DNA of 28,958 bases from a virus (Duplodnaviria; Caudoviricetes). Positions 1 through 28,958 of the stretch are shown piece after piece. The stretch is taken from the IMG/VR virus record IMGVR_UViG_3300011334_000349, positions 1 to 28,958 of that record, one strand, 5' to 3'. The notes under the pieces were generated by a model. It did no database searches, had not been told where the DNA came from, and saw nothing but the letters and a program-made list of their open reading frames with translations. How positions within the stretch are numbered: position 1 is the stretch's first letter; the number at the start of each line of letters is the position of its first letter. A program made the position numbers and the translations under genes.

Positions 1-1072
1 CCGCAGTAGACCCTGAGCCTGCTGAATTTATTGCATTAGCAGTGATACTATATGACCCTAAATCCACATTTGCTACTGCACCTGTGTAGGGTACTTTGCC
101 ATTAAAGCTAGACCAATCGGCACTACTTAAAGCACCTCTATTTGTAGCACTTGCCGTAGGCAGATTGAAGGTGTGAGTACTTCCCGTACTACTTATTCCA
201 AAATTTGTACCGCTTGTGCCTGTGGCGAAGTTCTGCACCTGTGCAGTCAACCCATTCAAGGCAGTCAATCCTGTGGTGAAGGTGGTGATGATTTGGCAAA
301 GGTGACTATTCTCTGTGTGCAAAGTGATAGTTCTACCTGCATGGGTTACATAGTACCTAAGTGCTAGTCTATCTGTTAAGGCTAGGGTAGTAGTAGGCAC
401 TGCCAAAGCACTGAAATAAGGGTTGATATTTGTGCCTAAAGAAATAGACTCAGGGGTAGTGCTATTTGATGCTATCAAGGTAGCCGTACCTCCTGAATTT
501 ACCTTGTACAATTCAATATAGAAGGTAGGACTACCTCCACCTGAAGAGGCAGAAAGATAGGTTTCAAAATTCCAATTACCCGCAGGAATTTCAAGCAAAG
601 CAGGATCACCTGCATCAGTAATGAATGAGGCTATGTATCCGTCTGCATTGATATTGATATCAGTACCTGCACCTAGAACAGGAACTTTATTCATCTCCCT
701 GTAGGCAATACCTCCAATAGTTCCCTGAGATACTGAACCATTTAGGTAGTAAGAAACGGAAGAACCACCGCCTCCACCTGAAGGGAAGTCAGCAAGGCTA
801 CCATCTCCTCGAATGTATTGGGACACTGTTCCGGCGCCGGTCACGCTTATATTCCCGCTCATAGTCACGGGGCTATTGCTTACCACAAAGGCCGAAGGCA
901 TTGACAATCCAATTGAAGTGACTCCAACGTCAAGGTTCTCTTGCATATATGATTGAATGCTCGAGATCGTTGCCTTGTTGGTTGTGCTTGCCCCAAATGC
1001 TACTATTGGAACGACGTCATTGTTTGCAATGTCGGTCCGCTCTACTAATTGACTAATCCTTTTATCCGCCAT
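1..1072 (-). CDS. Tail fibre / receptor-binding protein, N-terminal part (runs off the left edge; absent from the ORF track)
   Basis: Manual translation from ATG 1072 is open to base 1: MADKRISQLVERTDIANND...GAGTVSQYIRGDGSLADFPSGGGGG...TASATNRGALSSADW. G/S/T-rich and directly downstream of the tail genes. Confidence 0.8.
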   Translation of the reverse strand, partial: MADKRISQLVERTDIANNDVVPIVAFGASTTNKATISSIQSYMQENLDVGVTSIGLSMPSAFVVSNSPVTMSGNISVTGAGTVSQYIRGDGSLADFPSGGGGGSSVSYYLNGSVSQGTIGGIAYREMNKVPVLGAGTDININADGYIASFITDAGDPALLEIPAGNWNFETYLSASSGGGSPTFYIELYKVNSGGTATLIASNSTTPESISLGTNINPYFSALAVPTTTLALTDRLALRYYVTHAGRTITLHTENSHLCQIITTFTTGLTALNGLTAQVQNFATGTSGTNFGISSTGSTHTFNLPTASATNRGALSSADWSSFNGKVPYTGAVANVDLGSYSITANAINSAGSGSTA

Positions 1073-1076
1073 GATT

Positions 1077-3254
1077 TTAAATATAAAACTTGCTTACTCC
1101 GTTTTCTTGTAACATAAATGCATCATTCTCCAATAGTATAAAATCAAAGTCTTGTGGCTCGAGATTACCAAGGATTTTGAATAATGAAACATAACTCAAC
1201 CCATTTGATATTGGATTGTACTTGTCGACCTTTTGCAATTGAAAGAAGTGATTCCCCACTTTTATAATTCTCCGGAAATCCAAATTGGAAATATCCGTTG
1301 GAGTCAAATAGAAATATCCCTCAAGAAGTCGACTATTTCGGTCCCCGATTGAGGTGATTAATTGATCATAATACCTCGAATATAGATTCGTTTCCGGATA
1401 TAAACCGATTGAGAAATACACCTCTTCCGGCTTGCCAAATAACAAGTCGACGGATGGCTCAACAACACTATTCAAGTGGCCCGCGTAAGGATATGTTGTA
1501 TATGTCACCGGCGTTGGATCGGAATACTTTATTTTCCAAGGTGTTGGACAAGGCGTGTTTGGTTGATAGTACACCACTCTTGGCTTGAAGTTGTCCGGAA
1601 TCTTGACGTTGTTTTGGACCTTGTAAAGGTGGATCATGATTTGGCCGGCAACCTCCTCGCGTAATACCGGAGGAGCAAACACAACGCCAACGCTCTTGGT
1701 CTCAAGTACGAAATCATTGTCAATGATGTGGCGTTTTTCGCCATATCCTCGGTTGAATTTTGTCGAGTAAAATTGGGACCAATAGTCCGAATCATCGTCA
1801 AACTTCAAGCGGTATTCCTTCGCGGTTAATTCGCTCAAAGGTGTGATTTGTATATCTTGAGATTGATCAAGTTTGTCGGTCCAATCAATTGCTTGATCCT
1901 TGAAGGTTTTGAAAAACTCATTGTATGGATCGATTTCGAGAACGCTAGTTTGAAGGCGATTTTGAGTGACATAAAGATTGTACATTGAGATCGTGCTTTT
2001 CAAGAAGTCTCTCATCTTCATTGACTTTGGCATGGTGTATGTGATTTTCATCTCATCACCTTCCTCAACCTCTACGGCGGTGGGGACAGTGTTGCCTATT
2101 TTTAGCGATCCAAATGGGGCGATTGTCACTCTTGTTTGCAAATCGTCACCAAAGCCACCACCTCCGGCAATCTCACCGGTAAGTTCGACCTCGAAGAAAT
2201 CGCCTTGTTGAAGCGTAATGCCACCACTTATGTCAATGTCCCACGAAATGGATTGACCTACCGAAATGAAGTTCACGTTGAAACTATCGTAAAAAATCTC
2301 GATGGAATTACGAAGGATGCGCATCGTGAAAACATTATTACGCGGCGCTTGCAAAGCCGTAAAACTTACCCGACCAATGAAGTTGAGTCCGGTGTTTAGG
2401 TCTTGCGCTTTGTTCCATGTGAATTTTGTTCCGGCCGGATTGATTGTGAATCCGGATGCCTCCACATTTGTAAAATCTAGAAAGTGAGAATATGTTGTGT
2501 CCGTTGTGACGTCATCAATATTGAGAGTATTGGTTTGATTGAGTAATGTACTCACCAACCTTGTAATGGTTTTTTCGGCGGTCACCAAGATTGACTTCCG
2601 GAAATAGAAATTATCAAAGATCGGAGAGACGATTTGGAATTGTGCAAACTCAAAAATCCTCTTGAGAATTTCGCTCACAAAAACCGCCGGTTTGAAATTA
2701 CGGATTGGAAAGGTATTCATGTCAACCGAATACCCGTAGTCAACCAATGGATAAACATAATTTTGCGCGCCCTCTTCGTACTCAATGCGGCTCCAACTCG
2801 CCTCAATGTTTGCCCTATTCCACGTATGATCATAGTCATCAAAATCAAGATCGGCAAGTGTAAAGTCACCGAGTTCGTGGAGGATGTCACGAAGCCTTCC
2901 AAACATATTCACCTCATATGTGACATCCCCTTCTTTATTGTTGATTTTGCTTAACCTCAAAACGCCGTCAAAAATCTTGACGTTGTCCAATAGGATTTGG
3001 GATTGTGCTTGTTTTGCCGGATTGAAATTTTGGCCGATGTTGGGTCCGGCGATAATATCATTTGAAACCGAGATGTCAAAGATGTTTCCAAAGAGTTGTT
3101 GGTTTCTTGGTGTCGATGGTAAGGTCAACGTCTTTGAGAACGAAGTATTTCTCCGCTCGATATCGCTTATGTCCGCAACCGAAAAGGTGAATTCAACATC
3201 AATATCCCCGAGTGTATCCGCTTCGAATCCCTCGATAAATAGGCGAGCGCTCAT
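1077..3254 (-). CDS. Minor tail / baseplate hub-like structural protein
   Basis: 725 aa. N-terminal 'FSVADISDIERRNTSFSKTLTLPST' and 'YVYPLVDYG' motifs resemble Bacteroidetes siphovirus tail proteins. Lies upstream of the fibre gene. Confidence 0.65.
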   Translation of the reverse strand: MSARLFIEGFEADTLGDIDVEFTFSVADISDIERRNTSFSKTLTLPSTPRNQQLFGNIFDISVSNDIIAGPNIGQNFNPAKQAQSQILLDNVKIFDGVLRLSKINNKEGDVTYEVNMFGRLRDILHELGDFTLADLDFDDYDHTWNRANIEASWSRIEYEEGAQNYVYPLVDYGYSVDMNTFPIRNFKPAVFVSEILKRIFEFAQFQIVSPIFDNFYFRKSILVTAEKTITRLVSTLLNQTNTLNIDDVTTDTTYSHFLDFTNVEASGFTINPAGTKFTWNKAQDLNTGLNFIGRVSFTALQAPRNNVFTMRILRNSIEIFYDSFNVNFISVGQSISWDIDISGGITLQQGDFFEVELTGEIAGGGGFGDDLQTRVTIAPFGSLKIGNTVPTAVEVEEGDEMKITYTMPKSMKMRDFLKSTISMYNLYVTQNRLQTSVLEIDPYNEFFKTFKDQAIDWTDKLDQSQDIQITPLSELTAKEYRLKFDDDSDYWSQFYSTKFNRGYGEKRHIIDNDFVLETKSVGVVFAPPVLREEVAGQIMIHLYKVQNNVKIPDNFKPRVVYYQPNTPCPTPWKIKYSDPTPVTYTTYPYAGHLNSVVEPSVDLLFGKPEEVYFSIGLYPETNLYSRYYDQLITSIGDRNSRLLEGYFYLTPTDISNLDFRRIIKVGNHFFQLQKVDKYNPISNGLSYVSLFKILGNLEPQDFDFILLENDAFMLQENGVSKFYI

Positions 3255-4435
3255 ATTACTTGACGATTGTTTATAAGTCCAATTTCAAGGTCCAATTCAA
3301 TGTTGAATACTTTGTCAATCGAGGTCTTTTTAACCTCGTACGAAGTGGCGGTTGGCATTACCGGAATCCATGAAAAGTTGATATAATTATCGTTGACCAA
3401 ATTCATGTAAACGAGTGGAGAGGAATACAATTCACGCAAGGTTTCCGCTTGGGCGTTGTTCAAATAGTCCGAGGTGATCCTCCACTTTTGAGTTTCCTTG
3501 GTATAATAAATTGGATTTATATTCTTGACGATTATGCCGTTGGCCTCGTATATACTTCCGGTATAGTTCCGTTCATATCTCTTTCGCTCGGTGTCAAATG
3601 TGGTCTTGCTTACAAGGTCAAAATTAAAGAAGTCATATGCGCCAAACTTGTTGAGATATGCCAAGCGCATCGGATCAAATCGACCACAACCTTGAGTGTA
3701 AATTGTCGCAAACATTGTACGTCTTGGCGACTCGGGATCGTGGTTGACAAACAAGTTGATTGTTGCAATGTTGGAGCCATATGTCATCGGCATTACTTTG
3801 ACATAAGAAATGCAAGGTGTTGATTCCGGTTCCGATGGAGAGATGTAATAAGTTTGCACGGAGCCATTTGCATAAGTAATAAACAACTCAAAATTTATGA
3901 TTAGCCCCGTATTTAAAAAGGCAAATATTTGAGAATCCGTTTCTCTCATTTTGATATCGCTCCAATTTGTCAACGGCCGATATTCGGTAATATCTTCGCC
4001 GGTATACTTTGCCAAATCCGAATACCAATTGTCCAACTCGAGCAAAGGCAAAGAAGCCGCCAAGGCATACTTGGTCGCGCTCACAACCTCGGAAGCCTCC
4101 ACGATCTCAAATACTCCGCCAACCTCATAATATTCATAACATTTGAGATAATACCCTTTGATCGTATTGGTCCGATTCAAGAATGATTCGACTTGATAAA
4201 AGCCATCGGTATATTGGAAGTTGACCGAGACAAATTTACTCACATCGAATTCCACCTCTTCGGATGGATTTGCCGGAGAGTCGTAAAACGCTTGAGTGAT
4301 TAATTCATCGGAATCGTTGTAAACCTTCACAACGTACTTGAATCCGGATTGATTAGCGTTGGTACTACTTATCAAATAGTTGATCCGGTTAAATGCCGGA
4401 AGAATGTCAATGCTTGGCTCGACGAGTGTGATCAT
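3251..4435 (-). CDS. Tail structural protein (distal-tail-like)
   Basis: 394 aa, 'YLNKFGAYDFFNF' motif, 4-nt ATGA overlaps with both neighbours, tail module context. Confidence 0.55.
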   Translation of the reverse strand: MITLVEPSIDILPAFNRINYLISSTNANQSGFKYVVKVYNDSDELITQAFYDSPANPSEEVEFDVSKFVSVNFQYTDGFYQVESFLNRTNTIKGYYLKCYEYYEVGGVFEIVEASEVVSATKYALAASLPLLELDNWYSDLAKYTGEDITEYRPLTNWSDIKMRETDSQIFAFLNTGLIINFELFITYANGSVQTYYISPSEPESTPCISYVKVMPMTYGSNIATINLFVNHDPESPRRTMFATIYTQGCGRFDPMRLAYLNKFGAYDFFNFDLVSKTTFDTERKRYERNYTGSIYEANGIIVKNINPIYYTKETQKWRITSDYLNNAQAETLRELYSSPLVYMNLVNDNYINFSWIPVMPTATSYEVKKTSIDKVFNIELDLEIGLINNRQVI

Positions 4436-5064
4436 TTGCTTACTTTTAAAATTAGGGAATTAAATCCAATCTCTTTGATGTCAATGTTGAAATCCGGAGT
4501 GGCCTCATCAATAGATTGCTTGATGAATTGACGACCCTCGATTCCGTACTTCTTAATATAGTAAGCCATCCTCTTGGCACTACTTGAAATTTGAGGCAAC
4601 ATTTGTCGGCCCTCAATTAGGTTGGTGGCCTCGATCTCCATGTTCTTTCTTTTCATCCATCCTTCCAATTCGGTCAATGCTTTGACCGGCATAAAGTAGG
4701 TTTTGAATTGATAGTATTCCCCCTTCACGTTTGGATATGTCTTTTTGTTTTTGATGTTTTGCATCACTCCGCGAACACCCTTGTCAATATAATCCGAATA
4801 CTCGGCGCCAACCGAAATTTCCAACCGATATCCGGTTTTGGTTTCAACTACACCAATGACATCATAAGAGGATTTTAGTTTTCCATTATCCTCGGGAGAA
4901 TACTTCTCAAGATTCAATACGATGTTTCCACCCAATTTGAGCATCGCCTCCTTGACATTTGTCACGAGCATATTCTCAACGTCAAGGATATATTCCCCCG
5001 CTTTCTTTCTTCTTCCCCCTACGTTAATGAGCCCGTCTACTTCGCTCTGGCTTGAAACTCCCAT
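4432..5064 (-). CDS. HK97 gp10-like tail completion/neck protein
   Basis: 'SPEDNGKLKSS...AEYSDYIDKG...YGIEGRQFI' pattern resembles the gp10/virion morphogenesis family. Confidence 0.55.
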   Translation of the reverse strand: MGVSSQSEVDGLINVGGRRKKAGEYILDVENMLVTNVKEAMLKLGGNIVLNLEKYSPEDNGKLKSSYDVIGVVETKTGYRLEISVGAEYSDYIDKGVRGVMQNIKNKKTYPNVKGEYYQFKTYFMPVKALTELEGWMKRKNMEIEATNLIEGRQMLPQISSSAKRMAYYIKKYGIEGRQFIKQSIDEATPDFNIDIKEIGFNSLILKVSK

Positions 5065-5310
5065 TTCTTATATTCGAATTCTTTGTGTTTGTTGTAATCC
5101 TTCAAATATGCGAGTGAGTTTAAATACTCAATCACCCGCAAATCATATGCATCGCTTACTTTTATGTTGTTGAAATCCGCCACTTGTTTGGTGTGAAAGA
5201 CCCACCCCCAACGCGCCATAAACGTGCTGCCTTCTCCATCAACGCTTTGTTCTCCGGTGAGTAAATTATTATAGTTTCGATTAATTCGTTGAACAATTGA
5301 CAAAAAAAAA
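5037..5310 (-). CDS. -1 frameshift extension of the tail assembly chaperone (GT-like product, about 242 aa in total)
   Basis: The -1 frame is open from the T9 slippery run (5302-5310) to the stop at 5037 and encodes 'FFLSIVQRI...ARWGW...YLAYLKD'. Confidence 0.6.
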
Positions 5311-5764
5311 GCATACACCCATAAACATCAAGGAAATTTGCATTGAGCAAATCATCCGCAACGACGTCATGAGGAACAACTCCATATCCTTGATACTTTT
5401 TCCCCTTCATTGGAAGGAAGAAACAAGCGGCAATCTTGTTTAATTGCATGATCTCGCCACTAAATGAGAGAATGTCGATGTATTGACCGGCCGTGATCTC
5501 GTTAATCTCATGACAAAACTTATATCGATTCTCTCCAACTTGCAAGAAGTCAACCGGCTTGGTCTCCGGAATGTTGTTGAAGAAGGATAATTTTTGGCCA
5601 TATTCATGGATTAGGTCTCGATATTTGTAATTATCATAATCGCGCTCATTTTTCCCCTCGATCACCGACAACATCTTTTGTTGTTTTTCAATGATGTTGA
5701 GATTGACATTCATCTCGATGTCATATAGGGTAATGAATTGACCAACATTTAATTTGTCCCACAT
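5162..5764 (-). CDS. Putative tail assembly chaperone (G-like)
   Basis: 200 aa with CTT TTT TTT slippery site near the 3' end and an overlapping -1 ORF. Confidence 0.55.
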   Translation of the reverse strand: MWDKLNVGQFITLYDIEMNVNLNIIEKQQKMLSVIEGKNERDYDNYKYRDLIHEYGQKLSFFNNIPETKPVDFLQVGENRYKFCHEINEITAGQYIDILSFSGEIMQLNKIAACFFLPMKGKKYQGYGVVPHDVVADDLLNANFLDVYGCMLFFCQLFNELIETIIIYSPENKALMEKAARLWRVGGGSFTPNKWRISTT

Positions 5765-5797
5765 AATCGTAAATATATTTTCTTGGTTTAATGTATT

Positions 5798-6958
5798 TTA
5801 TCGGAAAGAGTACCGGCCCAAATGGCTCTTGGAAATCTTGTTCACAACCGAATATCTCAACGCATCAAGCGCGTGATTGAAATTGTCCACTGGCCGATTG
5901 GTCATGACCCCATTTTTATCTTCAATGTACTTGTAATTTCTCAACTCTTTGATGAGGTTAAAACTCGACTCGGTCGCGTGCAATTTATACCGGCGGATGA
6001 TGTCAATTCCGATGTTGATTGATCCCTTGATCGTTGGCTTTACGTTCCAACCCATGCGGTATATTTCCTCAATTGACTTTGGCTCGGCGCTATCGGCGAA
6101 CACCTCATTGGACCGGTCAAGGCCGAGCGCCTTCATCTCGTTCGCGATGTCTTGGTTGGTCATGCCGGTCCGGTACAACAATTCATCCACGTACATATTG
6201 TCATCCAAAACATACGTACGGACCAAGGATGTTGGATCACTTGAGTACCCGAAGTCAAGTCCATATGAGACCAATTTGGCCTCCTTGGGAATCTCTTTGA
6301 TCGTGTTGAAAGTGTATACCAACGATCTCGATTGCCCGCGCTCACCGAGCCCGTATACCCTCCAATAATTCTCATCAACTTGTTTGAGTCTCTCGATCTC
6401 TTCTTTGATCACATCGCCCAAAAACGGATTGTCTTTGTATGTGGTTTGAAAAAAGTCAACGTCCGATCGTGTCAAAACTTGATCATATATCCAATGGAAT
6501 TCCTCACTTGGATTATAGTCAAGAATCACTTTCTCGTTGGTACGAAATAGCAATTGAGTCCAATCCTCTTGGGTCAATTCGTTGGCCTCGTTGGCAAATA
6601 GCAAATCCCTCTTCCGTCCGCGTATCTTTTGCGGCATATCCAAAGAGATAAACTCGATCGTGTTCTCATTGAGTCGGTACTCGTTCGCGGTCTTTGAGTG
6701 GGAGTCCTCGGAATAGATGTTGTGATCTTTGAGGATTTGAAAGAAGTCGCGCATGACAGTGCCGCGAAGGGCCGGAAAAGACTTGCGGCAAATCGTGATA
6801 ATCTTTCCCTCGTTTCTTAGGCAATATGAGAAGATAATCCAAAGAAGAATATTGTATGTCTTGCCGGATCGCGTGCCCCCTTGTTGGACCACTATCTTGG
6901 CCGTCGATGTCTCAAGGTGCTTGAATACCTTGTTTGTTTTTATACTACTTGTCTCCAT
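5798..6958 (-). CDS. terL: Terminase large subunit (PBSX/SPP1-like)
   Basis: Walker A QGGTRSGKT, Walker B-like LFANEANE, DYNP, nuclease motifs GLDFG and DNFNHALDALRY. ATG at 6958 preferred over the track's 6964. Confidence 0.95.
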   Translation of the reverse strand: METSSIKTNKVFKHLETSTAKIVVQQGGTRSGKTYNILLWIIFSYCLRNEGKIITICRKSFPALRGTVMRDFFQILKDHNIYSEDSHSKTANEYRLNENTIEFISLDMPQKIRGRKRDLLFANEANELTQEDWTQLLFRTNEKVILDYNPSEEFHWIYDQVLTRSDVDFFQTTYKDNPFLGDVIKEEIERLKQVDENYWRVYGLGERGQSRSLVYTFNTIKEIPKEAKLVSYGLDFGYSSDPTSLVRTYVLDDNMYVDELLYRTGMTNQDIANEMKALGLDRSNEVFADSAEPKSIEEIYRMGWNVKPTIKGSINIGIDIIRRYKLHATESSFNLIKELRNYKYIEDKNGVMTNRPVDNFNHALDALRYSVVNKISKSHLGRYSFR

Positions 6959-7280
6959 CCACAATGGTCACCTCAAAGAGTTTCTTCCCATCGGCACCGG
7001 TCACCTCTTGGCGCTCGACATATCCTCGGCTTTTGCCTTGGGTCTTCAAGTAAAAAATGATTGCGGTCATGTTGCCGTCCTTCATGCCTTTGTCCAACAT
7101 TGACTCGGCAAAATCAAGCCGCTTGTTTCGTCCCTCTTGTACGGCCTCTTCAAGGCCCTCTTGTTCAATCCAAGCGTAAAGCGATGACCTATCAACACCC
7201 AATGACTTTGAAGCCGTTGAGAGGTTCCCAAATGCCTTGACAATGGCTTCGTGAATAATTGATCGGTCCGGCTTTTTCAT
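6945..7280 (-). CDS. terS: Terminase small subunit
   Basis: N-terminal HTH (LSTASKSLGVDRSSLYAW) and 'TAIIFYLKTQGKSRGYVERQE'; overlaps the terL start. ATG at 7280 chosen. Confidence 0.8.
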   Translation of the reverse strand: MKKPDRSIIHEAIVKAFGNLSTASKSLGVDRSSLYAWIEQEGLEEAVQEGRNKRLDFAESMLDKGMKDGNMTAIIFYLKTQGKSRGYVERQEVTGADGKKLFEVTIVDGDK

Positions 7281-7302
7281 AGTGTGGATTTTTGTTGTTT
7301 TC

Positions 7303-7332
7303 AAAAAAGGTAGCCGGAAAACCCGACTACCT
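7303..7332 (-). terminator. Rho-independent terminator upstream of terS
   Basis: Minus strand AGGTAGTCGG-GTTTT-CCGGCTACCT followed by a T-run. Confidence 0.75.
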
Positions 7333-7358
7333 ACTTAACGTATTTTTTACTTCAAAGA

Positions 7359-7547
7359 TTACGCCGTTTCTTCGGCTTCAAGCGGAATGGGCTCCTCGAT
7401 CAATTTCTCGGTGATCGTGTTATCAATGCCGGCATCATCCAAGATTTTCTTGAATAGGTTGGCAAGGTCAAAGATGGCATCATCTTCAACGAGTGAAATG
7501 GTGACAACCTTTTTGGCGGAATTAAAATTTAGTTGAAAGTTTGACAT
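7359..7547 (-). CDS. Hypothetical acidic protein
   Basis: 62 aa ORF in operon order with an A-rich leader. Confidence 0.65.
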   Translation of the reverse strand: MSNFQLNFNSAKKVVTISLVEDDAIFDLANLFKKILDDAGIDNTITEKLIEEPIPLEAEETA

Positions 7548-7559
7548 GGTTTGTGGTTT

Positions 7560-7826
7560 TTAAAATGGAAGATTATCGACCGGTGCGGTATCAAATGAAT
7601 TTGCCTTTGGTACCGCGGCATCTTTCTCGTATTCATTCAAGGTGATTGAGACGTCCTTTCCGAATTGGTTTGGCTCCTCAAAGATATTGATGTTGAGGTT
7701 GATGTACTTTTTGCCATTGTACGTGTACGCGTGGGCCTCCGCATCGGTGAGGCAAATTGATGATGTCATCCAAGAAGCGCTTCTTTTCTTTCCGCTTCCG
7801 AGTCTTACTTTTGGTTTTGGTTCCAT
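7560..7826 (-). CDS. Putative ssDNA-binding protein
   Basis: 88 aa, 'NGKKYINLNI...NQFGKDVSI', acidic C-terminal tail ending DNLPF as in SSBs. Confidence 0.55.
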   Translation of the reverse strand: MEPKPKVRLGSGKKRSASWMTSSICLTDAEAHAYTYNGKKYINLNINIFEEPNQFGKDVSITLNEYEKDAAVPKANSFDTAPVDNLPF

Positions 7827-7829
7827 GAT

Positions 7830-8177
7830 TTATTTGGTTTTTGGTTTTCTTCCTCTTTTGATCGGTGCCGGTTCCGGTGCAATTGCCGGAGCCACTTCCT
7901 CGATCGCGCTCAATATTTGGGCACTCTCCTCGCTTTGTTGCCGGTACCAAGTAGTTTGTTCCTCATTGGTATACCACGAATACAAGTAGTTGACCAATTC
8001 CATTCGGCACGATGTACACCAATGGGCAAATGCGTGTTTTGGATTTATATACTTGGTGTATAGATATATAAGTTCATTATAAACCTCCTTCGAATAGTTT
8101 CGAATGAATGCGTGTTTTTTGAAGCATTCATACAATGGCATATGCTTCTTGAAAATTTCGTGATCTTCCGGTGTCAT
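7830..8177 (-). CDS. Hypothetical protein (CxxC motif, basic KRGRKPK tail)
   Basis: 115 aa; ATGA overlap with the upstream gene. Confidence 0.65.
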   Translation of the reverse strand: MTPEDHEIFKKHMPLYECFKKHAFIRNYSKEVYNELIYLYTKYINPKHAFAHWCTSCRMELVNYLYSWYTNEEQTTWYRQQSEESAQILSAIEEVAPAIAPEPAPIKRGRKPKTK

Positions 8178-20853: not shown

Positions 20854-20907
20854 CTTGTTTTGATAAGAATGATTTGAGTTTCTTTTCGTTTTTTGAGTAA
20901 GCCATTT

Positions 20908-21501
20908 TTAAAATGGTTTTTTATATCTATTCCCTTGGTATCTTTCGGAGTATGGTCGGTGATCTTCGTAATCACCACGGCCAAGATTTATGGCCACCTT
21001 GTATTGATTACTTACCGGTTGGATGGTGGTGACGTCAGATCCAGGATTTAAGTACTCCGGATAAAGAGTCGAGTTTGCGCACAAGTAATTGATTGAGCGC
21101 TCCGCGTACCATTCGGCATATCCCTTGTAATATTGACTTACACTTGACAACTCGGCAAAGGTCGGCTCGGTAATGTTCTCACTCTTGCGCTTGACCACTC
21201 CCTTGTTCACAAATTTGTATTGCATCGCCATTGGTAATTCACCAAGGACATAATTGAAAAGAGTGTCGGTAAGATAGTCGTCAAGCAAAGTACGATAAAC
21301 CGCGTTTCCCACGTCGGTAATTGTTCCGGCCACAATGAGATCAAGAATCTTGTCATATAGGGCCGTTCCAACTATTGGATGGATATACCGATCTTGAGTC
21401 ATTTTGATGACTTGGGTGACGTTCTTCAAGTCAATGTTCGCGGATGCGACAGTGAAGTCTTTGAAGGATTGCTCGGAAATCATTAATACGTTCGCGCTCA
21501 T
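20908..21501 (-). CDS. Head-tail adaptor / head completion protein
   Basis: 'QDRYIHPIVGTALYDKI...YLCANSTLYPEY'; translationally coupled to the portal. Confidence 0.6.
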   Translation of the reverse strand: MSANVLMISEQSFKDFTVASANIDLKNVTQVIKMTQDRYIHPIVGTALYDKILDLIVAGTITDVGNAVYRTLLDDYLTDTLFNYVLGELPMAMQYKFVNKGVVKRKSENITEPTFAELSSVSQYYKGYAEWYAERSINYLCANSTLYPEYLNPGSDVTTIQPVSNQYKVAINLGRGDYEDHRPYSERYQGNRYKKPF

Positions 21502-23540
21502 CTTGATTTATTTTCGACAACTACATTTCTTCTCCACTCATGACGACAAAATGGAGTTCTCTTTCCGGTGTTTGGATTTGTGTACCAACCTCCGCAAAGT
21601 TGAAAAACGGAATATCCAAGTTGATTGGAAATATTTTGAATTTCTTCACGAGTAAATAAAAGAGAGTCTCCTCCATTATATAAACGCTCGCACAATGGAC
21701 GGCTTCCGCTTATCGCATCCGGTACGTTTGGACGTTCCTCATATGAGTATAGTACTCGGAAAGAAGTCACCGGAGTGAGCCGCTTAATGGCCGCCTCGCC
21801 GGTCCTCGTAATCTTCCGAGTAATTAGTCCGGTATTTTTTATGTCCTCGGTGATCACATTGTCATCAATCAAGGTATTAATCCGATCAATGACAACCTTC
21901 TCGTCAATGCCGACCGCCTTGGATATTTCCGGAATGGTGACATTGGGATCGTTTTGTATTTGACTCAATATCTTTCTTTGCACCTCATTCAATTGATACT
22001 CGGCAAACAATTCTTGTTTGACAAATTCATCCATTGTGGAGGAGAAAACCATGCGGTCGTTTTGGATAACCTTGAAGCGATCACGGCTCATTCCTTTGCC
22101 CTCAAATAATGCGAGAATCTCTTCGTCCTTTTTTGTATGGGCGCAAGTCAAATGCATATGATCGCTCATCGTCAATTTGACATTCTCATTCAAGGTGGTA
22201 ATGATCTCGGCCTCGGCCGCTTTCTCCGGAGTAAGTACTTCCGTTTTTGCCGGCAATCCAATCAATGTTCGGAGTTCGTTGATGTCCATGCTCTCGACTA
22301 CCTTGGTGGCAATCAAAGGCGACAAACTATTCAATGAATTGATGATGTCTTGGGAACCAGCACTCTCTTTCTTTTCAATAGCAGCCAAACCTAACTTGGT
22401 TCGAATCTCGTCTTGAGTCATGTTTGCGGAAATGATCGCCTCGCTAAATTCAAAAGATATCGGCTCGGTTGGCTTCAATTCCAATTTGGCCGTGACATCG
22501 TTGAATTTATATAAGTAATTGATCGTCTCCTCAAGAGCGCGTTGTTTTGCGTTGATGTACGTGTTTTGAAATAATTGGTAAGCATCTCGCAACTCGCTTC
22601 TTCCTCCGAGTTGTCCTTCGGTTTTTATGCCGAATAAAAGTGGAGACGTGATTTTGTGTCCGGAGAATATTTCTTGTTGGACAGTCAAATTCAAAAGATC
22701 AAAATGTTTGTCCAATTCGGTACCACTTAGGTCAATGATTGACGGCTCGTTCTCCTTTGAATCATTGAAAGCGAGCATGAATTTGCCGGCGTTCTTTGAT
22801 CCGCTAAATTTATTTTGGAATTGTCTCTCAATGCGGTCCTCTTCCTCTTGGCTAACTTTGCCGCCATTAAGGTTGATCAACTTGCTTGAGAACATTCCGT
22901 TGTTTATGGTGTTCAAATGGTACTCCCCGATTGAAATATCAAGTTCGATGTAAGAAATGGCACCACGATAATCCGGCAAAGAGTAAGTATTTACACCGGC
23001 TCGATATTCTTTAAAGTATAGGATTTGTGATCCGGTTGGATTGTTTGGATCAAATGCCGGATAGGTATCAAAGTCCGGACGTGGATTGACGTTGTCGTTT
23101 TTGATCCAATTGTCCGAAACAAAAAACAAGGAATTATCCGCGTTCGTCCGCACCTTGTAATAATCGACATGATACATTTCCGCAATCTCTCCGGTCGCCT
23201 TGGTCCAAATGATTTGAAGATAATACCCTCCAAAGATTGTCAAGTCTGTCACCAACTTATTTGTCAACTCATTCAAGGATTCTTCTTTGGTGTTTACCTT
23301 GTCGATCATGCCAAACACCTTGGCCTTCTCCATTTCGTCGTCACTCTTTACATTCCAGCCATTGCCGGAAATGTAATCGACTTTTCCGGTCACAATTGCG
23401 TTGTGCTTTGCGGAATTATTATAAATGCGGAGAAGATAATTTGGGTAATCATTTTTCTCCCCATAAAAAATATAATCCTTGCCTTTGACCTCCTTATAAA
23501 TTGGAAGCGGTACTTGATCGAATTTTAAGAATTTTATCAT
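21498..23540 (-). CDS. Portal protein with C-terminal extension
   Basis: 'YGEKNDYP', 'SAKHNAIV', 'YSLPDY', 'KFSGSKNAGK', 'HKITSPLLFGI' portal motifs; 680 aa. Confidence 0.85.
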   Translation of the reverse strand: MIKFLKFDQVPLPIYKEVKGKDYIFYGEKNDYPNYLLRIYNNSAKHNAIVTGKVDYISGNGWNVKSDDEMEKAKVFGMIDKVNTKEESLNELTNKLVTDLTIFGGYYLQIIWTKATGEIAEMYHVDYYKVRTNADNSLFFVSDNWIKNDNVNPRPDFDTYPAFDPNNPTGSQILYFKEYRAGVNTYSLPDYRGAISYIELDISIGEYHLNTINNGMFSSKLINLNGGKVSQEEEDRIERQFQNKFSGSKNAGKFMLAFNDSKENEPSIIDLSGTELDKHFDLLNLTVQQEIFSGHKITSPLLFGIKTEGQLGGRSELRDAYQLFQNTYINAKQRALEETINYLYKFNDVTAKLELKPTEPISFEFSEAIISANMTQDEIRTKLGLAAIEKKESAGSQDIINSLNSLSPLIATKVVESMDINELRTLIGLPAKTEVLTPEKAAEAEIITTLNENVKLTMSDHMHLTCAHTKKDEEILALFEGKGMSRDRFKVIQNDRMVFSSTMDEFVKQELFAEYQLNEVQRKILSQIQNDPNVTIPEISKAVGIDEKVVIDRINTLIDDNVITEDIKNTGLITRKITRTGEAAIKRLTPVTSFRVLYSYEERPNVPDAISGSRPLCERLYNGGDSLLFTREEIQNISNQLGYSVFQLCGGWYTNPNTGKRTPFCRHEWRRNVVVENKSR

Positions 23541-23899
23541 GTGGTTGTGGTATAGGTTTTGAAATCACCATTATATCCGTTGTATCGAACAACTCCGGCC
23601 GTACTAAGATTTGGCGCGGTGAGTTGCATCTTTCCCGTTGCAATTACATCACTCCCGCTCTCGCTTTGTGTGACATTATATCTCCAAAACCCAATTGTTG
23701 ATTCTTCAAAGTGGGCCTCGGTAATGGTGAATAAAGATGCGCGATCTTTGAACTCACTTGTGTCGGTCAATGTCAAGGTCACATTTTCATTTGTCACTTC
23801 ATGGTTGAATGAGAAAATATAGACGTTGCTCGTTGTTTCTCGTTTGTCAGTTAGCGTAATAAAGAAAGAAGTGTTTTCTCCTTGTGGTATTGCGATCAT
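23537..23899 (-). CDS. Virion-associated hypothetical protein
   Basis: From ATG 23899 (MIAIPQG); beta-rich, ATGA overlap with the portal. The track's upstream start abuts a terminator. Confidence 0.6.
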   Translation of the reverse strand: MIAIPQGENTSFFITLTDKRETTSNVYIFSFNHEVTNENVTLTLTDTSEFKDRASLFTITEAHFEESTIGFWRYNVTQSESGSDVIATGKMQLTAPNLSTAGVVRYNGYNGDFKTYTTTT

Positions 23900-23932
23900 A
23901 ATTAGAAATATAAAATGGGGAAAGATGTACAC

Positions 23933-23960
23933 AAAAAAAACGCCCCCAAACCGGAGGCGC
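23933..23960 (-). terminator. Rho-independent terminator after the major tail gene
   Basis: CGCCTCC-GGTTT-GGGGGCG followed by T8. Confidence 0.8.
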
Positions 23961-23987
23961 TTTTATCATCAAACCTAAAACCAAAAA

Positions 23988-24491
23988 TTAATCCAAAGGA
24001 GGAGTTCCGGTGAACAATCCGGCCAACTCTTTTTCATTACCGGTAAAGGTTAGAGTGTACCCGTTACGATCACCAAACGCGGTTCCCGTAGCCGACCCAC
24101 CACCGGTGATGTCAAGACCATTTTGGAAACCAAGAATCCACATCTTGTCATTGTTATCTTTAACCAATGCAACCAAGTTGTTTTTCGCAAGAAGAAGAAT
24201 CTCGTTGCGTGTGTTCACTTGCAATTTGTTCAAGATAATCTCAAGAGTCTGAGTATAGAAAACTGTCCCGTTTTGGACGTTTGTGTTTACCGCTTCCGCA
24301 AAGTTTGAACTCTCTTTTACGAGTTCATACTTCCAAAAGTATTTTCCGGTTTCCATTGTTACGCCGGTATAAGTTCCGGCCGATCCGGTCCATGATGCCA
24401 CATCTTCAACCGCGGCGAAGTATACTTCCTTCAAGCCACCGATTGAATCCTTGCAATCCAAGGTATAATTTTGAGTCAACGCACAAGGCAT
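23988..24491 (-). CDS. Major tail (tube) protein
   Basis: 'CKDSIGGLKEVYF...GTAFGDRNGYTLTFTGNE'; directly after the capsid gene, with its own terminator. Confidence 0.65.
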   Translation of the reverse strand: MPCALTQNYTLDCKDSIGGLKEVYFAAVEDVASWTGSAGTYTGVTMETGKYFWKYELVKESSNFAEAVNTNVQNGTVFYTQTLEIILNKLQVNTRNEILLLAKNNLVALVKDNNDKMWILGFQNGLDITGGGSATGTAFGDRNGYTLTFTGNEKELAGLFTGTPPLD

Positions 24492-24512
24492 ATATCTATC
24501 GTTTAGAGTGTG

Positions 24513-24545
24513 AAAAAAGGGGAGAAGGAAAATCCTCTCCCCCTT
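24513..24545 (-). terminator. Rho-independent terminator after the capsid gene
   Basis: GGGGAGAGGA-TTT-TCCTTCTCCCC followed by T6. Confidence 0.8.
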
Positions 24546-24552
24546 ATTTTAT

Positions 24553-25509
24553 TTAAGGTGCAACGTATTTTTTCCAGAACACTACCTCGTCTGGGAATGC
24601 GATCTGAACACCTAATTTGAACTCAACAACAAATCGCATTTCGTCTGCCTCCTTGGCGAAGAACAACTCAAAGCGGTCCTGCTCGTTCAGAAGGTCGGTT
24701 CCGAGGTACAAGTTTGACATTGACAATCCAACCAAGTAGTCGGTACCATTCAAACCATTTACGCCGATCAACTTGACGTTGGTTCCAGGGACGATCAATT
24801 CCATGTTTGCGGCATCAACCGGATAATGGAAATAATTTCCTTCTCTCAAGGCGATCACATATTCACGGAAAGTGTCGTTTCCGCAGAAGATAACGACGTC
24901 TTGCTTGTCCAACAAAGCGGCCGGAAGAGCCAAGAATACCGCATCAACCGCGGCGATTACGTTCGCGCTTGTCAATGTAGTTACTTGAGCGGAGTTTCCG
25001 TTGATAGGATCACCGGCACCACCAAAACCAAGGGCGTTGATGATTGTTGCAATTCCGTTGAACTTGTTCAATTGAGCATTACCGGAACCGGTATCACCTT
25101 GCCAAATTGCGGTTTCCAAAGCGGCTCCAATTCTCTCCACCTTTTGAGCGGAATACTCGGCGCCATATGCCATGTAATCGTAAGTCGATCCCTCTCTCAA
25201 AGCCTTTTGAGTATACTTCGCTTCAAATGCCTTTGGGCAAATTGATTCTTGTACCTTGATCTTGCCCACTGTCAACACTCTCTGAGTGATTGAAGTCGTT
25301 CCGCTTGAAGAGAAACCGCAAGTTCCTCCCGCTTGGAACACGGCATCGGTTGTCATGATGTTGATTGTCTCGGCGGATTTGATACCCACTTGAACGTTTC
25401 CTTGTGCCTCGATGAGAGATGCAGTTTTTGCGGAGAAGATTGCCGCGGACGTAAGTTGGAGTTCGTTCTCCTTTACGTAGTTAGTTAAACCGGTTAAGTC
25501 TAGTGCCAT
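24553..25509 (-). CDS. Major capsid protein
   Basis: 318 aa after protease and scaffold; 'ETAIWQGD...KFNG', 'YLGTDLL' motifs; followed by a terminator. Confidence 0.85.
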   Translation of the reverse strand: MALDLTGLTNYVKENELQLTSAAIFSAKTASLIEAQGNVQVGIKSAETINIMTTDAVFQAGGTCGFSSSGTTSITQRVLTVGKIKVQESICPKAFEAKYTQKALREGSTYDYMAYGAEYSAQKVERIGAALETAIWQGDTGSGNAQLNKFNGIATIINALGFGGAGDPINGNSAQVTTLTSANVIAAVDAVFLALPAALLDKQDVVIFCGNDTFREYVIALREGNYFHYPVDAANMELIVPGTNVKLIGVNGLNGTDYLVGLSMSNLYLGTDLLNEQDRFELFFAKEADEMRFVVEFKLGVQIAFPDEVVFWKKYVAP

Positions 25510-25515
25510 TTTTTT

Positions 25516-26103
25516 TTATTTTTTTAGTGATTGAAATGCTTTTTGAAGGTTTTTAAAACTTTCATTTTTCTCTGTTTTTAATTGCTTTGCAAATTGATTC
25601 GGTGCCGTGATTGCTTTATCGCTTGGCTCCTTTGCAAGTGACTCGATTACTTGAGCGGACAACTTTACCGCTTCCGTTACATCGGCCGCTTTCTCTTCCA
25701 TTGCTTTAACCTTGGCGGAAAGTTCTTCAACCTTCTTTTCAAGTGCCCCCATGACCTCTTCAAACTTGGCCATTGCCTCGTCTTTGATCGGCTCCACCAT
25801 TGGCGCCTCTTCGGATGCCTCAATTTCGATTTCTACTTTTGCGGCTTCTCCGCTTTTTACCTCGGCGATCTTACCCGCTTCGGTCACCACAACGACTTCT
25901 CCGGTCTCCAAGGTATGCTCTCCAATTGGTGCTGGAATAAGTTCGCCATCTTCTCCGATCACATAGATTTCCAACGTCTCGAGATCATATGATACCTTAG
26001 TACCATCGATCAAAACGCCTTCCATCATTGCGAAAGTTGCTTTCTTGCTTGCTTCGGTAAAAAGCAATTTTTTGATTTCTGTGAGTGCTTCTTTTGCGTT
26101 CAT
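25516..26103 (-). CDS. Capsid scaffolding protein
   Basis: Acidic, 'PAPIGEHTLETG', C-terminal coiled coil; between protease and capsid. Confidence 0.7.
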   Translation of the reverse strand: MNAKEALTEIKKLLFTEASKKATFAMMEGVLIDGTKVSYDLETLEIYVIGEDGELIPAPIGEHTLETGEVVVVTEAGKIAEVKSGEAAKVEIEIEASEEAPMVEPIKDEAMAKFEEVMGALEKKVEELSAKVKAMEEKAADVTEAVKLSAQVIESLAKEPSDKAITAPNQFAKQLKTEKNESFKNLQKAFQSLKK

Positions 26104-26123
26104 AATTGTAAATATTTGGTTGA

Positions 26124-27032
26124 CTATTTTTGTTCAATTTGAGAAAGAATTTTGAAAATTTGGGACATGATCTCCTCGTCCTTTGTCATCACCTCTCCGG
26201 TCTTTTCGTACTTAAATAAACCCTCCACCGAGAAGCCCTTGAAGGTGCCATCTTTTACCTTACTCCAAAGAGATTCATTTTCCACTTTGAATGAGCCAAA
26301 CCATGAGCCATTTGCCACGTCCTCAAATCCCTTTGGAGGATTTACTCCCCGCTCTCGGTCGATGATGTACGATTCAAACATATATACCCCTTGGGCCGGC
26401 TTGCCATGTTCAATGTTGACCTTTGCTTGGTACCCTTTTTTGAAGAATTTTTGGACAATCTTTTTGATTTCCTCCGAACTAAATGTGACATAATATTCAC
26501 CCTCCTCATCTCTCCGGTATATCGGTAAATCGGCGATCATTAAAGGACCGGAAACAATTCTTTGATCCTCGCTTTGTACCGAGAAAGAAAGTTTGGTGGA
26601 AAATTCCTCTTTGATAATCTTGGATTCCGCCCAACGAAGCATTGACTCGCCACCCCATAAAAGATATGAGATTGTACCACAAGCCTCGGTATCATCCGGA
26701 TTATAATACTCGGCCGCTCGACTCAAATAAGAGTAAGTCCTTTTGATCGTTTCCTCCGAGAGATTTTCCCCGTTCATGATCTGCGTTGCACGAATTTTTC
26801 CCACTTGTGTGGCGCATCGATTGCCTATCTTCTCATTCAATTCGATTCCTCTCTTGGCCGCATCTCTTGCGCTTTGTGGGTAATCGTTGTACGATTCAAA
26901 ATTCTCCTCGCCGAAGGCAAGAAAGTTGCGTTGAATCGCGGGGCTTTCCACCAAGGCAACAAAGTCAACCTCCTCCTCTCCGTCGATATCATCGGAGATG
27001 AGCATCTTATAAATAGGTATTTGATCCATCAT
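26124..27032 (-). CDS. XkdF-like prohead serine protease with an inserted domain
   Basis: 'VALVESPAI', 'RIVSGPLMIAD', 'VNIEH', 'GSWF', 'FKGFSVEG'. Confidence 0.85.
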   Translation of the reverse strand: MMDQIPIYKMLISDDIDGEEEVDFVALVESPAIQRNFLAFGEENFESYNDYPQSARDAAKRGIELNEKIGNRCATQVGKIRATQIMNGENLSEETIKRTYSYLSRAAEYYNPDDTEACGTISYLLWGGESMLRWAESKIIKEEFSTKLSFSVQSEDQRIVSGPLMIADLPIYRRDEEGEYYVTFSSEEIKKIVQKFFKKGYQAKVNIEHGKPAQGVYMFESYIIDRERGVNPPKGFEDVANGSWFGSFKVENESLWSKVKDGTFKGFSVEGLFKYEKTGEVMTKDEEIMSQIFKILSQIEQK

Positions 27033-27043
27033 GTATTTAAGTA

Positions 27044-28958
27044 TTAAAAACCGGCTCTTCGTTCAATATCGGCCACCCTCTTTTGGGAGTTGGTCACTTC
27101 ACTTTCCACAACGTACGCTTTGAGTGGAGGTTGATTTTGCATAATGCTCCCGAGTGCGGTCACCGGACTATTGCCCAAGGTTGGCACCGCCGGTGCAACG
27201 GCCGGAGCCGCTCCGGAAACCGATGGTACGGAGGCACCACCTCCACCCCCTGGCACCGGAGTCCTTGCAATTGCTCTTACATTCTTAATACCTCCGGCAA
27301 TAGCAATGGCCGCCGCGATTGCCGCTCGAATTGGAGACGAAGGATCACCAACAATGAGTTGAGAAGCGTACGCCTTTTGAGCGCCAAGATAGGTGTCAAT
27401 AGTTGTGGAGGCAATTGCCGTCGCCTTTCCGGCGGCGGTATTCTTTCCAACCAAATCCGAAATCGTGCCCAATAAATTCGAAGCAACTTCCGCATTTTGG
27501 ACCTTCGCTTGGTTCTCTAATTTGTCGATCTCTTTTCTCGCGTTGGAATTTGCCAAGACTCCGGCGGTATATTCATCGTCCGATATCTTTCCGGCCTTGT
27601 GATATTGTTCCAACAAGTCAAGTTTTTGATCAAGTAGTGTTCTTTGAGTGTTGAAATCGTTTTCGTCTTTCAACATTTGCGCATCCAACTTCTCAAGTTC
27701 CTTGATCGCATCCGCCTCATCAATTGATTTTTGCAATGCTTTCAACGCTTGATCTTCTTGAATTTTTAGCGCCACCAATAAATTCGTTTTCTCCTCCGAT
27801 TTTAATTTTTCGTTGTTTAATATCTCGTCCTTTTGCGCTTGGAAATCAAGTAAAATTTGCTCCCTTGCTTTGACGTTTTCATCTTTGATTCCGTCAAGTC
27901 TCGTTTGAGTGATGATTTCATTCAATCGAATTTGTGCCTCCTTGCTTCTTTCCTCCTCCTCTTTTTGGTACTTATCTTTTACCGCTTGAATCTCACTTTG
28001 TCTCGCTTTCTCAAGACTTCCATCATCTTTGATCGATGCATCGTCAAGGACCTTTTGTTTTGCTTTGTACGCTTGGTTGATTGCGAGTTCTTCTTGGGCT
28101 TGTTTATCAAGCATCTTGTTTCTCGCTTCTTGCAATACGGCCAACGCCTCCTCTTCCGCCTTGGTTTGTTTATCTCGCTCCGCGGATGCCTTTTCTCCGG
28201 CCGCCTTTTGAGAATCCAAAACGGATAATTCATATCCGGCTCTTTGCTCTTTTAATTTATCAAGTCCTTGTTGCGCTTCTTTTATTGTGGCATCTCCCGC
28301 TTCACCAACCGCTTCCGGATCAAATACGAAAGAAGCCAAGTAATCCATTGTATCCTCTCTTAAATTTGTTACTTCATCAAGTACACCAATGGCATTTAAT
28401 CCTTTTGAAATCAAATCGATGCTCCCAAGGATCGCGGTCAATGGTAGTGACATAAAGTTAAGAAGGCCCGCAAGAATATCTTTATTCCTTTGTGCCGCAT
28501 CAACTTGGGCCTTCTTTGTTGCTTGAGCGTTTTGAAGATTGATCTCCGCCGCCGCGATTGCCTCGTCCGTTTGGGCAATCTTTAATTGGAGTATTTCCTC
28601 CTCGCTTTTGCCTTGAAGTTTGAGTTGATTGGTTTGGCCGTCAATTGCCTCGAGTTTTTCTTGATTGGCCTCAAGGTCTTTTTGAGTGGCCATGTTCAAG
28701 TCTTTTTGTTCCTTGCTTACACCTCCAACCAATGCGACAATGTCCTCCCAATAGGCAACGAGTAAACCAACCGCGACAACCAATGCGCCGATACCGGTGG
28801 AGATCAATGCTTTCTTGAATCCGTTTGCTCCGGCTGTCAATCCCATGAAGGAAGTCTTCAACTGAGCACCTACCTTTCCAATGTCTTTGAGTTGGGATAG
28901 TCCCTGAGAAAGTGCCATTGCTGACTGAACTTTCAGGAGTGCCTTTTCTACTTCCTGT
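27044..28958 (-). CDS. Tape measure protein (5' end outside the window)
   Basis: Frame is open to the right edge (QEVEKALLKVQSAMALSQGL...); long coiled coil, TM-like 'TGIGALVVAVGLL', C-terminal 'KAYVVESEVT'. Confidence 0.85.
   Translation of the reverse strand, partial: QEVEKALLKVQSAMALSQGLSQLKDIGKVGAQLKTSFMGLTAGANGFKKALISTGIGALVVAVGLLVAYWEDIVALVGGVSKEQKDLNMATQKDLEANQEKLEAIDGQTNQLKLQGKSEEEILQLKIAQTDEAIAAAEINLQNAQATKKAQVDAAQRNKDILAGLLNFMSLPLTAILGSIDLISKGLNAIGVLDEVTNLREDTMDYLASFVFDPEAVGEAGDATIKEAQQGLDKLKEQRAGYELSVLDSQKAAGEKASAERDKQTKAEEEALAVLQEARNKMLDKQAQEELAINQAYKAKQKVLDDASIKDDGSLEKARQSEIQAVKDKYQKEEEERSKEAQIRLNEIITQTRLDGIKDENVKAREQILLDFQAQKDEILNNEKLKSEEKTNLLVALKIQEDQALKALQKSIDEADAIKELEKLDAQMLKDENDFNTQRTLLDQKLDLLEQYHKAGKISDDEYTAGVLANSNARKEIDKLENQAKVQNAEVASNLLGTISDLVGKNTAAGKATAIASTTIDTYLGAQKAYASQLIVGDPSSPIRAAIAAAIAIAGGIKNVRAIARTPVPGGGGGASVPSVSGAAPAVAPAVPTLGNSPVTALGSIMQNQPPLKAYVVESEVTNSQKRVADIERRAGF

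Follow-up and report, generated by a model that had tools for sequence, protein, structure and literature searches.

What keeps the trinucleotide CAG, together with its complement CTG, out of almost an entire phage genome? In this study, we addressed this question for the IMG/VR record IMGVR_UViG_3300011334_000349, the complete contig of a river and lake phage. The contig has 28,958 bp (hereafter, the window) and represents a tailed-phage genome with almost all genes on the minus strand. A first-pass annotation, made from the sequence alone, had described near-total avoidance of CAG/CTG from about position 830 onward, and exact counts bear this out: the core of the window (830–28830) contains 39 CAG/CTG, whereas 556 are expected. 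The deficit is a selected property of a double-stranded DNA word.

Extent of the CAG/CTG deficit

Expectations were calculated with a first-order Markov model, and CAG/CTG sites were counted per region. The ratio of observed to expected sites in the core is 0.07, and CWG (W, A or T) is thus far from the Markov-corrected expectation. When set against 169 loci of the family whose CAG/CTG is normal (1.6 Mb in total, and also the reference for the ratios of TAG/CTA, CTAG, AGCT, AAG/CTT, and GAG/CTC given below), the core stands at 0.05. The whole window holds 83 sites, of which 37 lie in 1–829, exactly the number estimated earlier by eye, 7 in 830–18600, 32 in 18601–28830, and 7 in 28831–28958. 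Avoidance is extreme in 830–18600 (7 vs 342 expected, ratio 0.02). The handful of sites announced for this part, four of which had been named, consists of those at 2087, 5047, 5227, 5890, 6757, 14102, and 14427. Avoidance is strong in 18601–28830 (32 vs 215 expected, ratio 0.15), and the two contig ends taken together are normal (44 vs 40.5 expected, ratio 1.09).

The flanks of the 39 core survivors show no pattern. Their orientation, which would reveal the polarity left by a Type III enzyme, is mixed in the left part of the core and, in the right part, shows only regional trends that track codon context. Eleven of the survivors are located in the capsid-like gene (24553–25509), including four in-frame CAG and one in-frame CTG. 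A clash with the translation of a gene that is expressed at a high level is one possible reason, and a more recent import is another.

Codon usage, sequence context, and the route of site loss

Codon-usage bias was rejected as the cause because the deficit persists when the genome's own codons are kept. Shuffling synonymous codons within the 37 core genes gave 315 ± 13 CAG/CTG (minimum 273 in 100 shuffles) against 38 observed, and the two kinds of codon joint held 25 sites vs 200 and 5 vs 107 after shuffling. The 2,975 nt of intergenic DNA contain a single site, whereas 46 are expected. On the sense strand, CAG and CTG are at 0.04 and 0.06 of the family level, so both orientations are equally low, and the earlier argument that an avoidance covering all frames and both strands is not codon bias alone was correct. 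Read on opposite strands, CAG and CTG make up a single double-stranded trinucleotide, which is not a palindrome, and the ban thus concerns one word in either orientation. Among the 16 NCAGN contexts, 11 are at or below 0.1 of the family level, and the four contexts above 0.13 are the rarest ones in the family, with at most 23 sites expected; a few known 4–6-bp restriction sites therefore do not explain the deficit. It spans all reading frames, both orientations, and intergenic DNA.

The route of loss was traced at 405 positions where 60% or more of the normal relatives have CAG/CTG; the window keeps the word at 16 of these positions and has lost it at 389. Within codons, CAG was replaced by CAA at 77 of 106 sites. 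At xCW|G codon joints, the replacements were CAG to CCG (63), CTG to CGG (51), CAG to CGG (40), and CTG to CCG (29). The middle base changed from W to S (G or C) at approximately 192 of the 389 lost sites, more than half of these changes being transversions (114 transversions at codon joints). The changes that removed sites are overwhelmingly synonymous, and the pattern is that of silent recoding, in which the word is selected against while the constraint on the proteins stays intact. The earlier proposal that methylated CWG decayed by deamination was rejected. Such decay consists of C-to-T and G-to-A changes with accumulation of TWG and CWA, whereas about half of the losses hit the middle base, transversions are frequent, and TAG/CTA, which decay should also yield, is down to 0.22 of the family level.

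Distribution of the purge among related phages

The comparison included 160 related viral loci with 75–99% protein identity. Only two of them (L081 and L082) share the purge, with a ratio of 0.05; partial depletion (0.33–0.63) was seen in six loci, which come from five contigs, and the rest have ratios of at least 0.81. In absolute terms, 172 of 178 family loci hold at least 15 CAG/CTG per kb. L081 and L082 are the closest relatives of 830–18600, and the partly depleted L001, L002, and L004 are the closest relatives of 18601–28830. In the partly depleted L004 and L083, the loss is uneven among contexts, and NCAGG and ACAGC are the lowest.

The window differs from L081 at 11% of bases and from L082 at 19–22%. 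When the observed substitutions were placed randomly, keeping base class and codon-position class, they created 22–46 new sites per aligned segment, whereas the relatives hold 0–6. Therefore, selection against the word has persisted through much divergence. The purge is lineage-specific, and the word has been kept out through 10–22% divergence.

The family also possesses a swappable slot between the RusA and helicase genes, which is occupied by a methyltransferase gene in the window (9748–10599). Nine other loci hold both flanks (L082, L144, L217, L126, L142, L136, L156, L134, and L149); eight of them have an open reading frame (ORF) of 267–380 aa in the slot, and one slot is empty. Six of these ORFs were searched against Pfam, and three matched N6/N4 methylases of two kinds, two matched C5 methylases, and one (269 aa) had no match. 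A slot for swapping methylases fits a family under heavy restriction pressure, and the family is a set of sequence dialects that probably track the restriction systems of different host strains. The window methyltransferase has an 83%-identical copy in L144, a lineage with normal CAG/CTG. Because L144 has this enzyme too, the distribution of homologs suggests that the window methyltransferase is probably not the protector of CAG.

The avoided word and its by-products

TAG/CTA is also depleted, to 0.22 of the family level (0.22 for sense-strand TAG and 0.21 for CTA), and declines along the same lineage series as CAG/CTG. It lies below the genome's own codon usage as well (196 vs 395 ± 15 shuffled), while AAG/CTT and GAG/CTC are at or above the shuffled counts and have core-to-family ratios of 0.96 and 1.9, respectively. 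Because TAG/CTA is low beyond codon usage while AAG/CTT and GAG/CTC are not, the avoided word is YAG/CTR (Y, C or T; R, A or G), with CAG depleted far more than TAG.

The core lacks several longer words. As had been claimed for the DNA after position 110, AGCT is missing (family ratio 0), the single AGCT of the window being located at 106. ACCGT/ACGGT, CCCGG/CCGGG, and GACGC/GCGTC each have a count of 0 in the core, and CTAG occurs seven times, which is 0.05 of the family level. AGCT, CTAG, CCNGG, and ACNGT correspond to 4–6-bp palindromic sites of known enzymes.

CCGG, GATC, and TCGA, which number 177, 166, and 141 in the window, had been described as conspicuous. Comparison of the core with 180 family loci upholds this description for CCGG (6.3 vs 0.85 per kb) and TCGA (5.0 vs 1.8 per kb), both of which show a lineage-specific excess, but GATC (5.9 vs 5.8 per kb) is ordinary for the family. 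The excess arises because an xCN codon before G leaves, synonymously, only CWG or CpG triplets, as in the change from NCAGG to NCCGG. ACAGG, TCAGG, and GCAGG occur approximately 100 times each per 28 kb in normal relatives and 0–2 times in the window, where ACCGG, TCCGG, and GCCGG number 105, 163, and 84. The excess of CpG, CCGG, and TCGA is an arithmetical by-product of the CAG/CTG replacements. Across 178 family loci, the densities of CAG/CTG and CpG are inversely related (Spearman −0.51); at one extreme, L037 has 40 CWG and 11 CpG per kb, and at the other, the window, L081, and L082 have approximately 1 CWG and 44–56 CpG per kb. Codon joints of the xCN|G type thus force either CWG or CpG, and avoiding one raises the other, which accounts for much of the family's odd oligonucleotide make-up.

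Several further peculiarities of the family were noted. CpG is strongly depleted in many normal relatives (L037, L149, L134, L144, L156, and L075), at 11–14 per kb vs approximately 40 per kb expected at 40% G+C, and these relatives are correspondingly rich in CAG/CTG. CGCG is nearly missing family-wide (0.05 per kb). In the pooled normal loci, CCAGC/GCTGG (25) and CCAGT/ACTGG (21) are 10–20 times rarer than other NCAGC or NCAGT words, and GCCGC/GCGGC is almost missing (9 in 167 kb). Some words are entirely absent from individual relatives: CCGG from L019–L027, L036, L042–L044, L051, L075, and others, AGCT from L022, L023, L027, L039, L040, L054, and L143, and GATC from L054 and L143.

Normal ends of the contig and authenticity of the DNA

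The switch at approximately 829 falls inside the tail-fibre gene, at about residue 81. Several relatives match only fibre residues 1–77 or 1–96, so the switch is a standard mosaic joint between a conserved anchor and a variable distal part. Bases 1–829 are 85–86% identical to L036–L038, which belong to CAG-rich, CpG-poor lineages, and the adjoining backbone past 829 is only 68–70% identical to the same relatives. The second switch, at approximately 28830, lies some 42 codons inside what the window contains of the tape-measure-like gene, and L093 matches only residues 1–42; this junction was placed by composition and by mosaic joints in relatives only. In relatives with both the tail-fibre and the tape-measure-like genes, the points matching the two ends of the window are separated by approximately 2.3–2.7 kb. 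On this basis, the genome is a circle or a circular permutation of approximately 31.3 kb, and the contig, short by about 2.3 kb, is nearly complete. Related contigs measure 31–32 kb, in accord with this estimate. The two ends look like the sides of one cassette of approximately 3.3 kb, made up of the distal fibre, the missing 2.3 kb or so, and the beginning of the gene that follows. The distal fibre has been exchanged as a module, and the version in the window is an import in the normal dialect; the cassette is a swapped host-range cassette. It may have been imported recently from a normal-dialect relative, perhaps along with a change of host.

The backbone is real DNA. Among the matches listed, at least 12 public sequencing runs from three studies hold at least half of the sampled words of bases 1–2400. 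Logan contigs of runs X2, X13, and X1 and shorter pieces of X14, i.e., four runs from four studies, match the backbone with few differences. In X1, one 3,111-nt contig bridges 310–2400 across the junction at 829, with small differences at 780–800. In X2 (a 9,369-nt contig) and X14, the backbone continues leftward past 801 into other sequence, which is identical in both runs, and in X13 (a 9,101-nt contig) it departs from the window at 908 into a third sequence. The alternative sequences of X2, X14, and X13 contained no CAG/CTG in the 30 letters examined. The two dialects beside the joint are only 68–70% identical, so that an assembler should find few long words common to both at which to jump from one to the other, which makes an assembly chimera unlikely.

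Host assignment

The host is probably a Bacteroidota bacterium, judging from the large terminase: all 15 of its relatives in prokaryote genomes are in Bacteroidota. The closest (86%) is on a 5.9-kb contig binned in a Saprospiraceae metagenome-assembled genome (MAG), and others occur in prophages, both of freshwater Bacteroidota MAGs and of Hymenobacter. In 150 stretches from genomes of the candidate host order, the CAG ratio has a minimum of 0.76 and a median of 1.13. Therefore, the phage is not copying the word make-up of the sampled genomes, and mimicry of the host was rejected as an explanation.

We also looked for traces of CRISPR immunity. A survey of 401 genomes from the candidate order detected Cas1 in 158. 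Cas1 was not found in the Saprospiraceae MAG, which is incomplete, so this is not evidence of absence. From 140 regions of the 150 Cas1 matches listed, 3,053 spacers were collected in 102 arrays beside Cas1. One of them matched the family, with 27 of 30 bases in four loci (L227, L155, L139, and L106), and the flanks of this single match have no usable motif. The spacer is the first in a type II-C-like array with 46-nt repeats in L350 (G004:C2, locus position approximately 5050), and its target is a conserved spot approximately 450 nt upstream of the large terminase gene. The match mildly supports the host order, which is that of the Saprospiraceae MAG, and gives no protospacer adjacent motif (PAM). 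When 20 kb of L127 were compared with 301 genomes of the candidate order, the 35 short-match stretches examined contained no repeat array. An element of approximately 100 nt in L127 (18540–18715) matches dozens of these genomes at 70–94%, and many of the other short matches fall on this conserved element at 18.5–18.7 kb, which may represent a tRNA or some other conserved element resembling host sequence.

Genome organization

The features of the window are listed in Table 1. No near-identical match to 25 kb of the window was present in the phage collection, and exact 30-nt words of the window had no match in viral contigs. The protein search of the phage collection returned only distant portals, from Nonlabens phages (27% identity), the nearest cultured phages, and Streptomyces phages (23% identity). 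In metagenomes, a 725-aa protein of the window matched 22 loci, none of which was closer than 75% or came from the purged lineage.

Table 1 Genes and compositional regions of the window.
Feature	Position	Strand	Basis or content
Tail fibre, cut by contig end	2–1072	−	Gene identification; dialect switch inside the gene at approximately 829
Large terminase subunit	5798–6964		Gene identification
Small terminase subunit	6945–7304		Gene identification
RusA	9407–9751		Family match
N6/N4-class DNA methyltransferase	9748–10599	−	Family match; N-terminus weakly matches ParB-like nuclease family
DnaB-type helicase	10778–11839		Gene identification
Replication initiator	12144–12848		Gene identification
Gam	14924–15418		Gene identification
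Erf	15779–16339		Gene identification
Metallophosphatase-type exonuclease	18595–19476		Family match
Amidase endolysin	19689–20108		Gene identification
Portal	21498–23540		Gene identification
Capsid-like protein	24553–25509		Gene identification
Tape-measure-like protein, cut by contig end	27044–28957	−	Gene identification
Backbone, extreme CAG/CTG avoidance	830–18600		Tail genes, terminases, methyltransferase slot, replication and recombination genes; ratio 0.02
Backbone, strong but less complete avoidance	18601–28830		Exonuclease, endolysin, portal, capsid-like, and tape-measure-like genes; ratio 0.15
Left end with normal CAG/CTG	1–829	−	C-terminal part of tail-fibre gene (from residue 81 or so); CpG-poor; one side of cassette
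Right end with normal CAG/CTG	28831–28958	−	First 42 or so codons held of tape-measure-like gene; other side of cassette

Discussion

The near-absence of CAG/CTG results from selection on the DNA word itself, and we hold, with slightly more confidence than doubt, that the agent is likely a host DNA-targeting factor reading an approximately 3-bp YAG word with a preference for CAG. The lineage-specific purge, the zero words of other lineages, and the swapped methylases speak for such a factor, as they are expected of strain-variable defences. The reader would cost the phage little per site, as might a nickase or nuclease that cuts frequently and is paired with a protective methylase, and every lost site would then bring a small gain. 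A small multiplicative cost would explain the graded lineages, the remnant of 39 sites, and the tolerance of the imported cassette, which may also be a sign that the phage moved to a host lacking the reader. The ordinary absences (AGCT, CTAG, ACNGT, CCNGG, and GACGC) may stem from conventional restriction enzymes of the same hosts.

Several points weigh against this explanation. No host, nuclease, methylase, or methylation was identified, and the agent is purely inferred; the host order itself rests on the one 5.9-kb MAG-binned contig and the one 27/30 spacer match. The open literature, searched without REBASE or subscription journals, yielded no bacterial enzyme with a 3-bp CAG or YAG site, and we know of none; nothing relevant turned up on a CWG methylase or on the avoidance of trinucleotides by phages either. 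TAG/CTA is only about 5-fold depleted, and L082 is free of CAG yet only half depleted of TAG, so the losses of CAG and TAG may have separate causes. In addition to its 39 core sites, the phage carries 44 sites in 957 bases of the cassette, and the missing 2.3 kb presumably contain others. Such a genome would still be destroyed by an efficient CAG cutter, and the explanation needs either a weak effect per site or a recent change of host.

Site avoidance normally reflects known restriction enzymes with sites of 4–6 bp, and the union of many restriction systems with sites of this size that contain CAG/CTG might approximate a trinucleotide ban. We consider this quite unlikely. The lineage does avoid ordinary sites completely, the family has lineage-specific zero words and a methyltransferase slot, and the loss in L004 and L083 is uneven among contexts. 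However, all well-populated NCAGN contexts in the window are at least 10-fold down, including the non-palindromic ones, and the flanks of the survivors are patternless. Dozens of CAG-containing systems would be needed, and none with CCGG, GATC, TCGA, GGCC, or ACGT, all of which are frequent or in excess in the window. The phage might instead avoid the target of a CAG nuclease of its own or of a competing element that is aimed at host or rival DNA, a strategy that occurs in chloroviruses. The genes at 16665–17006 and 13932–14393, which have no counterpart in other lineages or only in partly depleted ones, were candidates for such a nuclease. They were rejected: they have no family matches, and the 153-aa product of 13932–14393 is a widespread phage protein that lacks a nuclease signature and has 59 homologs spread over many contigs, phage-sized as well as bacterial. 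Searches of PHROGs, Pfam, and NCBIfam assigned no ORF of the window to a family of restriction-type endonucleases; matches of nuclease type were limited to RusA, the metallophosphatase-type exonuclease, and weak HNH and ParB-like nuclease-family ones. The cassette on the same molecule is moreover full of sites, and self-avoidance is very unlikely. Mutational decay of methylated CWG, or an artefact of sequencing or chimeric assembly, is scarcely credible. CAA/TTG is enriched, as decay would have it, and the contig ends are sharply unlike the core, as in a chimera, but the middle-base changes and the loss of TAG/CTA contradict decay, and the backbone recurs in contigs of four studies, one of which spans the joint at 829.

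Depletion of a CRISPR PAM, the main rival explanation, would require that CAG (or YAG) is the PAM of the host system, so that each escape mutation permanently deletes one targetable site on either strand. A PAM is a non-palindromic word of 2–5 nt that is read in either orientation, which fits the equal loss of CAG and CTG, and an additive gain per site fits the graded lineages, the tolerated remnant, and the unpurged cassette. CRISPR is common in the candidate host order, as the Cas1 survey indicates. PAM depletion in phages has been published (PMC4246573, PMC12174588) and resembles the present case in that both orientations of a short non-palindromic word disappear for an additive gain, but the reported depletion is mild or modest rather than 20- to 50-fold. 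Our literature search found no natural CAG/CTG PAM, the matches listed concerning engineered Cas9, repeat diseases, and a survey of Escherichia coli I-E PAMs. Furthermore, Type I systems usually accept several PAMs, and losing one word would not protect. We consider PAM depletion unlikely. Avoidance of the start sites of a primase or primase-like enzyme would involve the same words, because CTG and CTA are template trinucleotides at which known bacterial DnaG primases begin primers. E. coli primase starts at d(CTG) and the Staphylococcus aureus and Geobacillus primases at d(CTA) and d(TTA) (PMC2532735). Primases read such 3-nt words on single strands of either orientation, and the words agree with the window, where CTG is at 0.05 and CTA at 0.22 of the family level. 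The phage encodes a DnaB-type helicase but no recognizable primase domain and so probably needs host priming, and no benefit of avoiding start sites is apparent. Priming is a replication function rather than a defence, with no known reason for a lineage-specific ban, and 172 of 178 family loci keep at least 15 CAG/CTG per kb although their hosts should share the primase class. We regard this explanation as highly improbable.

The proposed host factor that reads YAG has partial precedents. Chloroviruses encode natural nickases with non-palindromic 3-bp sites, Nt.CviPII (^CCD) and Nt.CviQII (R^AG), the latter accompanied by M.CviQII (PMC3017599). The avoided word is likewise non-palindromic, 3 bp long, and read in either orientation, although this holds for the word and not for an enzyme, and R^AG and YAG differ in the first base. 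By analogy, a nick of the chlorovirus type would impose a small, repairable cost per site and would allow a gradual purge. The chlorovirus nickases differ in being encoded by algal viruses; they are not known from Bacteroidota, and an action of such enzymes on this phage is inferred. Restriction-site avoidance in virulent double-stranded DNA phages is the other precedent and, according to Rusinov et al. (2018, PMC6286503), mostly concerns palindromic, orthodox Type II sites. The present case resembles it in silent elimination, in lineage and host specificity, and in the complete absences of AGCT, CTAG, ACNGT, CCNGG, and GACGC from the same genome. The under-representation typical of such avoidance was found here (0.07 by the Markov model and 0.05 by family comparison). 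The avoided word is, however, no 4–6-bp palindrome of a known enzyme; it is a non-palindromic trinucleotide expected approximately 550 times and without a known cognate enzyme. We regard it as an extreme and new form of site avoidance, and the chance is fair that a reader of 3-bp words, so far undescribed, stands behind it.

With approximately 500 silent rewrites in 28 kb, a trinucleotide has been banned cleanly and lastingly from a whole genome, and no known foot fits this footprint. They point to an unrecognized reader of very short DNA words, which may be a nuclease, a nickase, or a PAM-dependent system. The relatives, which range from 0.02 to 1.1 of expectation, together with the fresh unpurged cassette provide a natural experiment, with which the host of the reader could be sought in metagenomes. 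It is possible, though we hold it with more doubt than belief, that bacteria, here a freshwater Bacteroidota host, possess an undescribed immunity that reads a 3-bp non-palindromic YAG, CAG above all, and presses phages so strongly and for so long that they silently rewrite whole genomes. If true, this immunity could be the bacterial counterpart of the chlorovirus AG-nicking systems.

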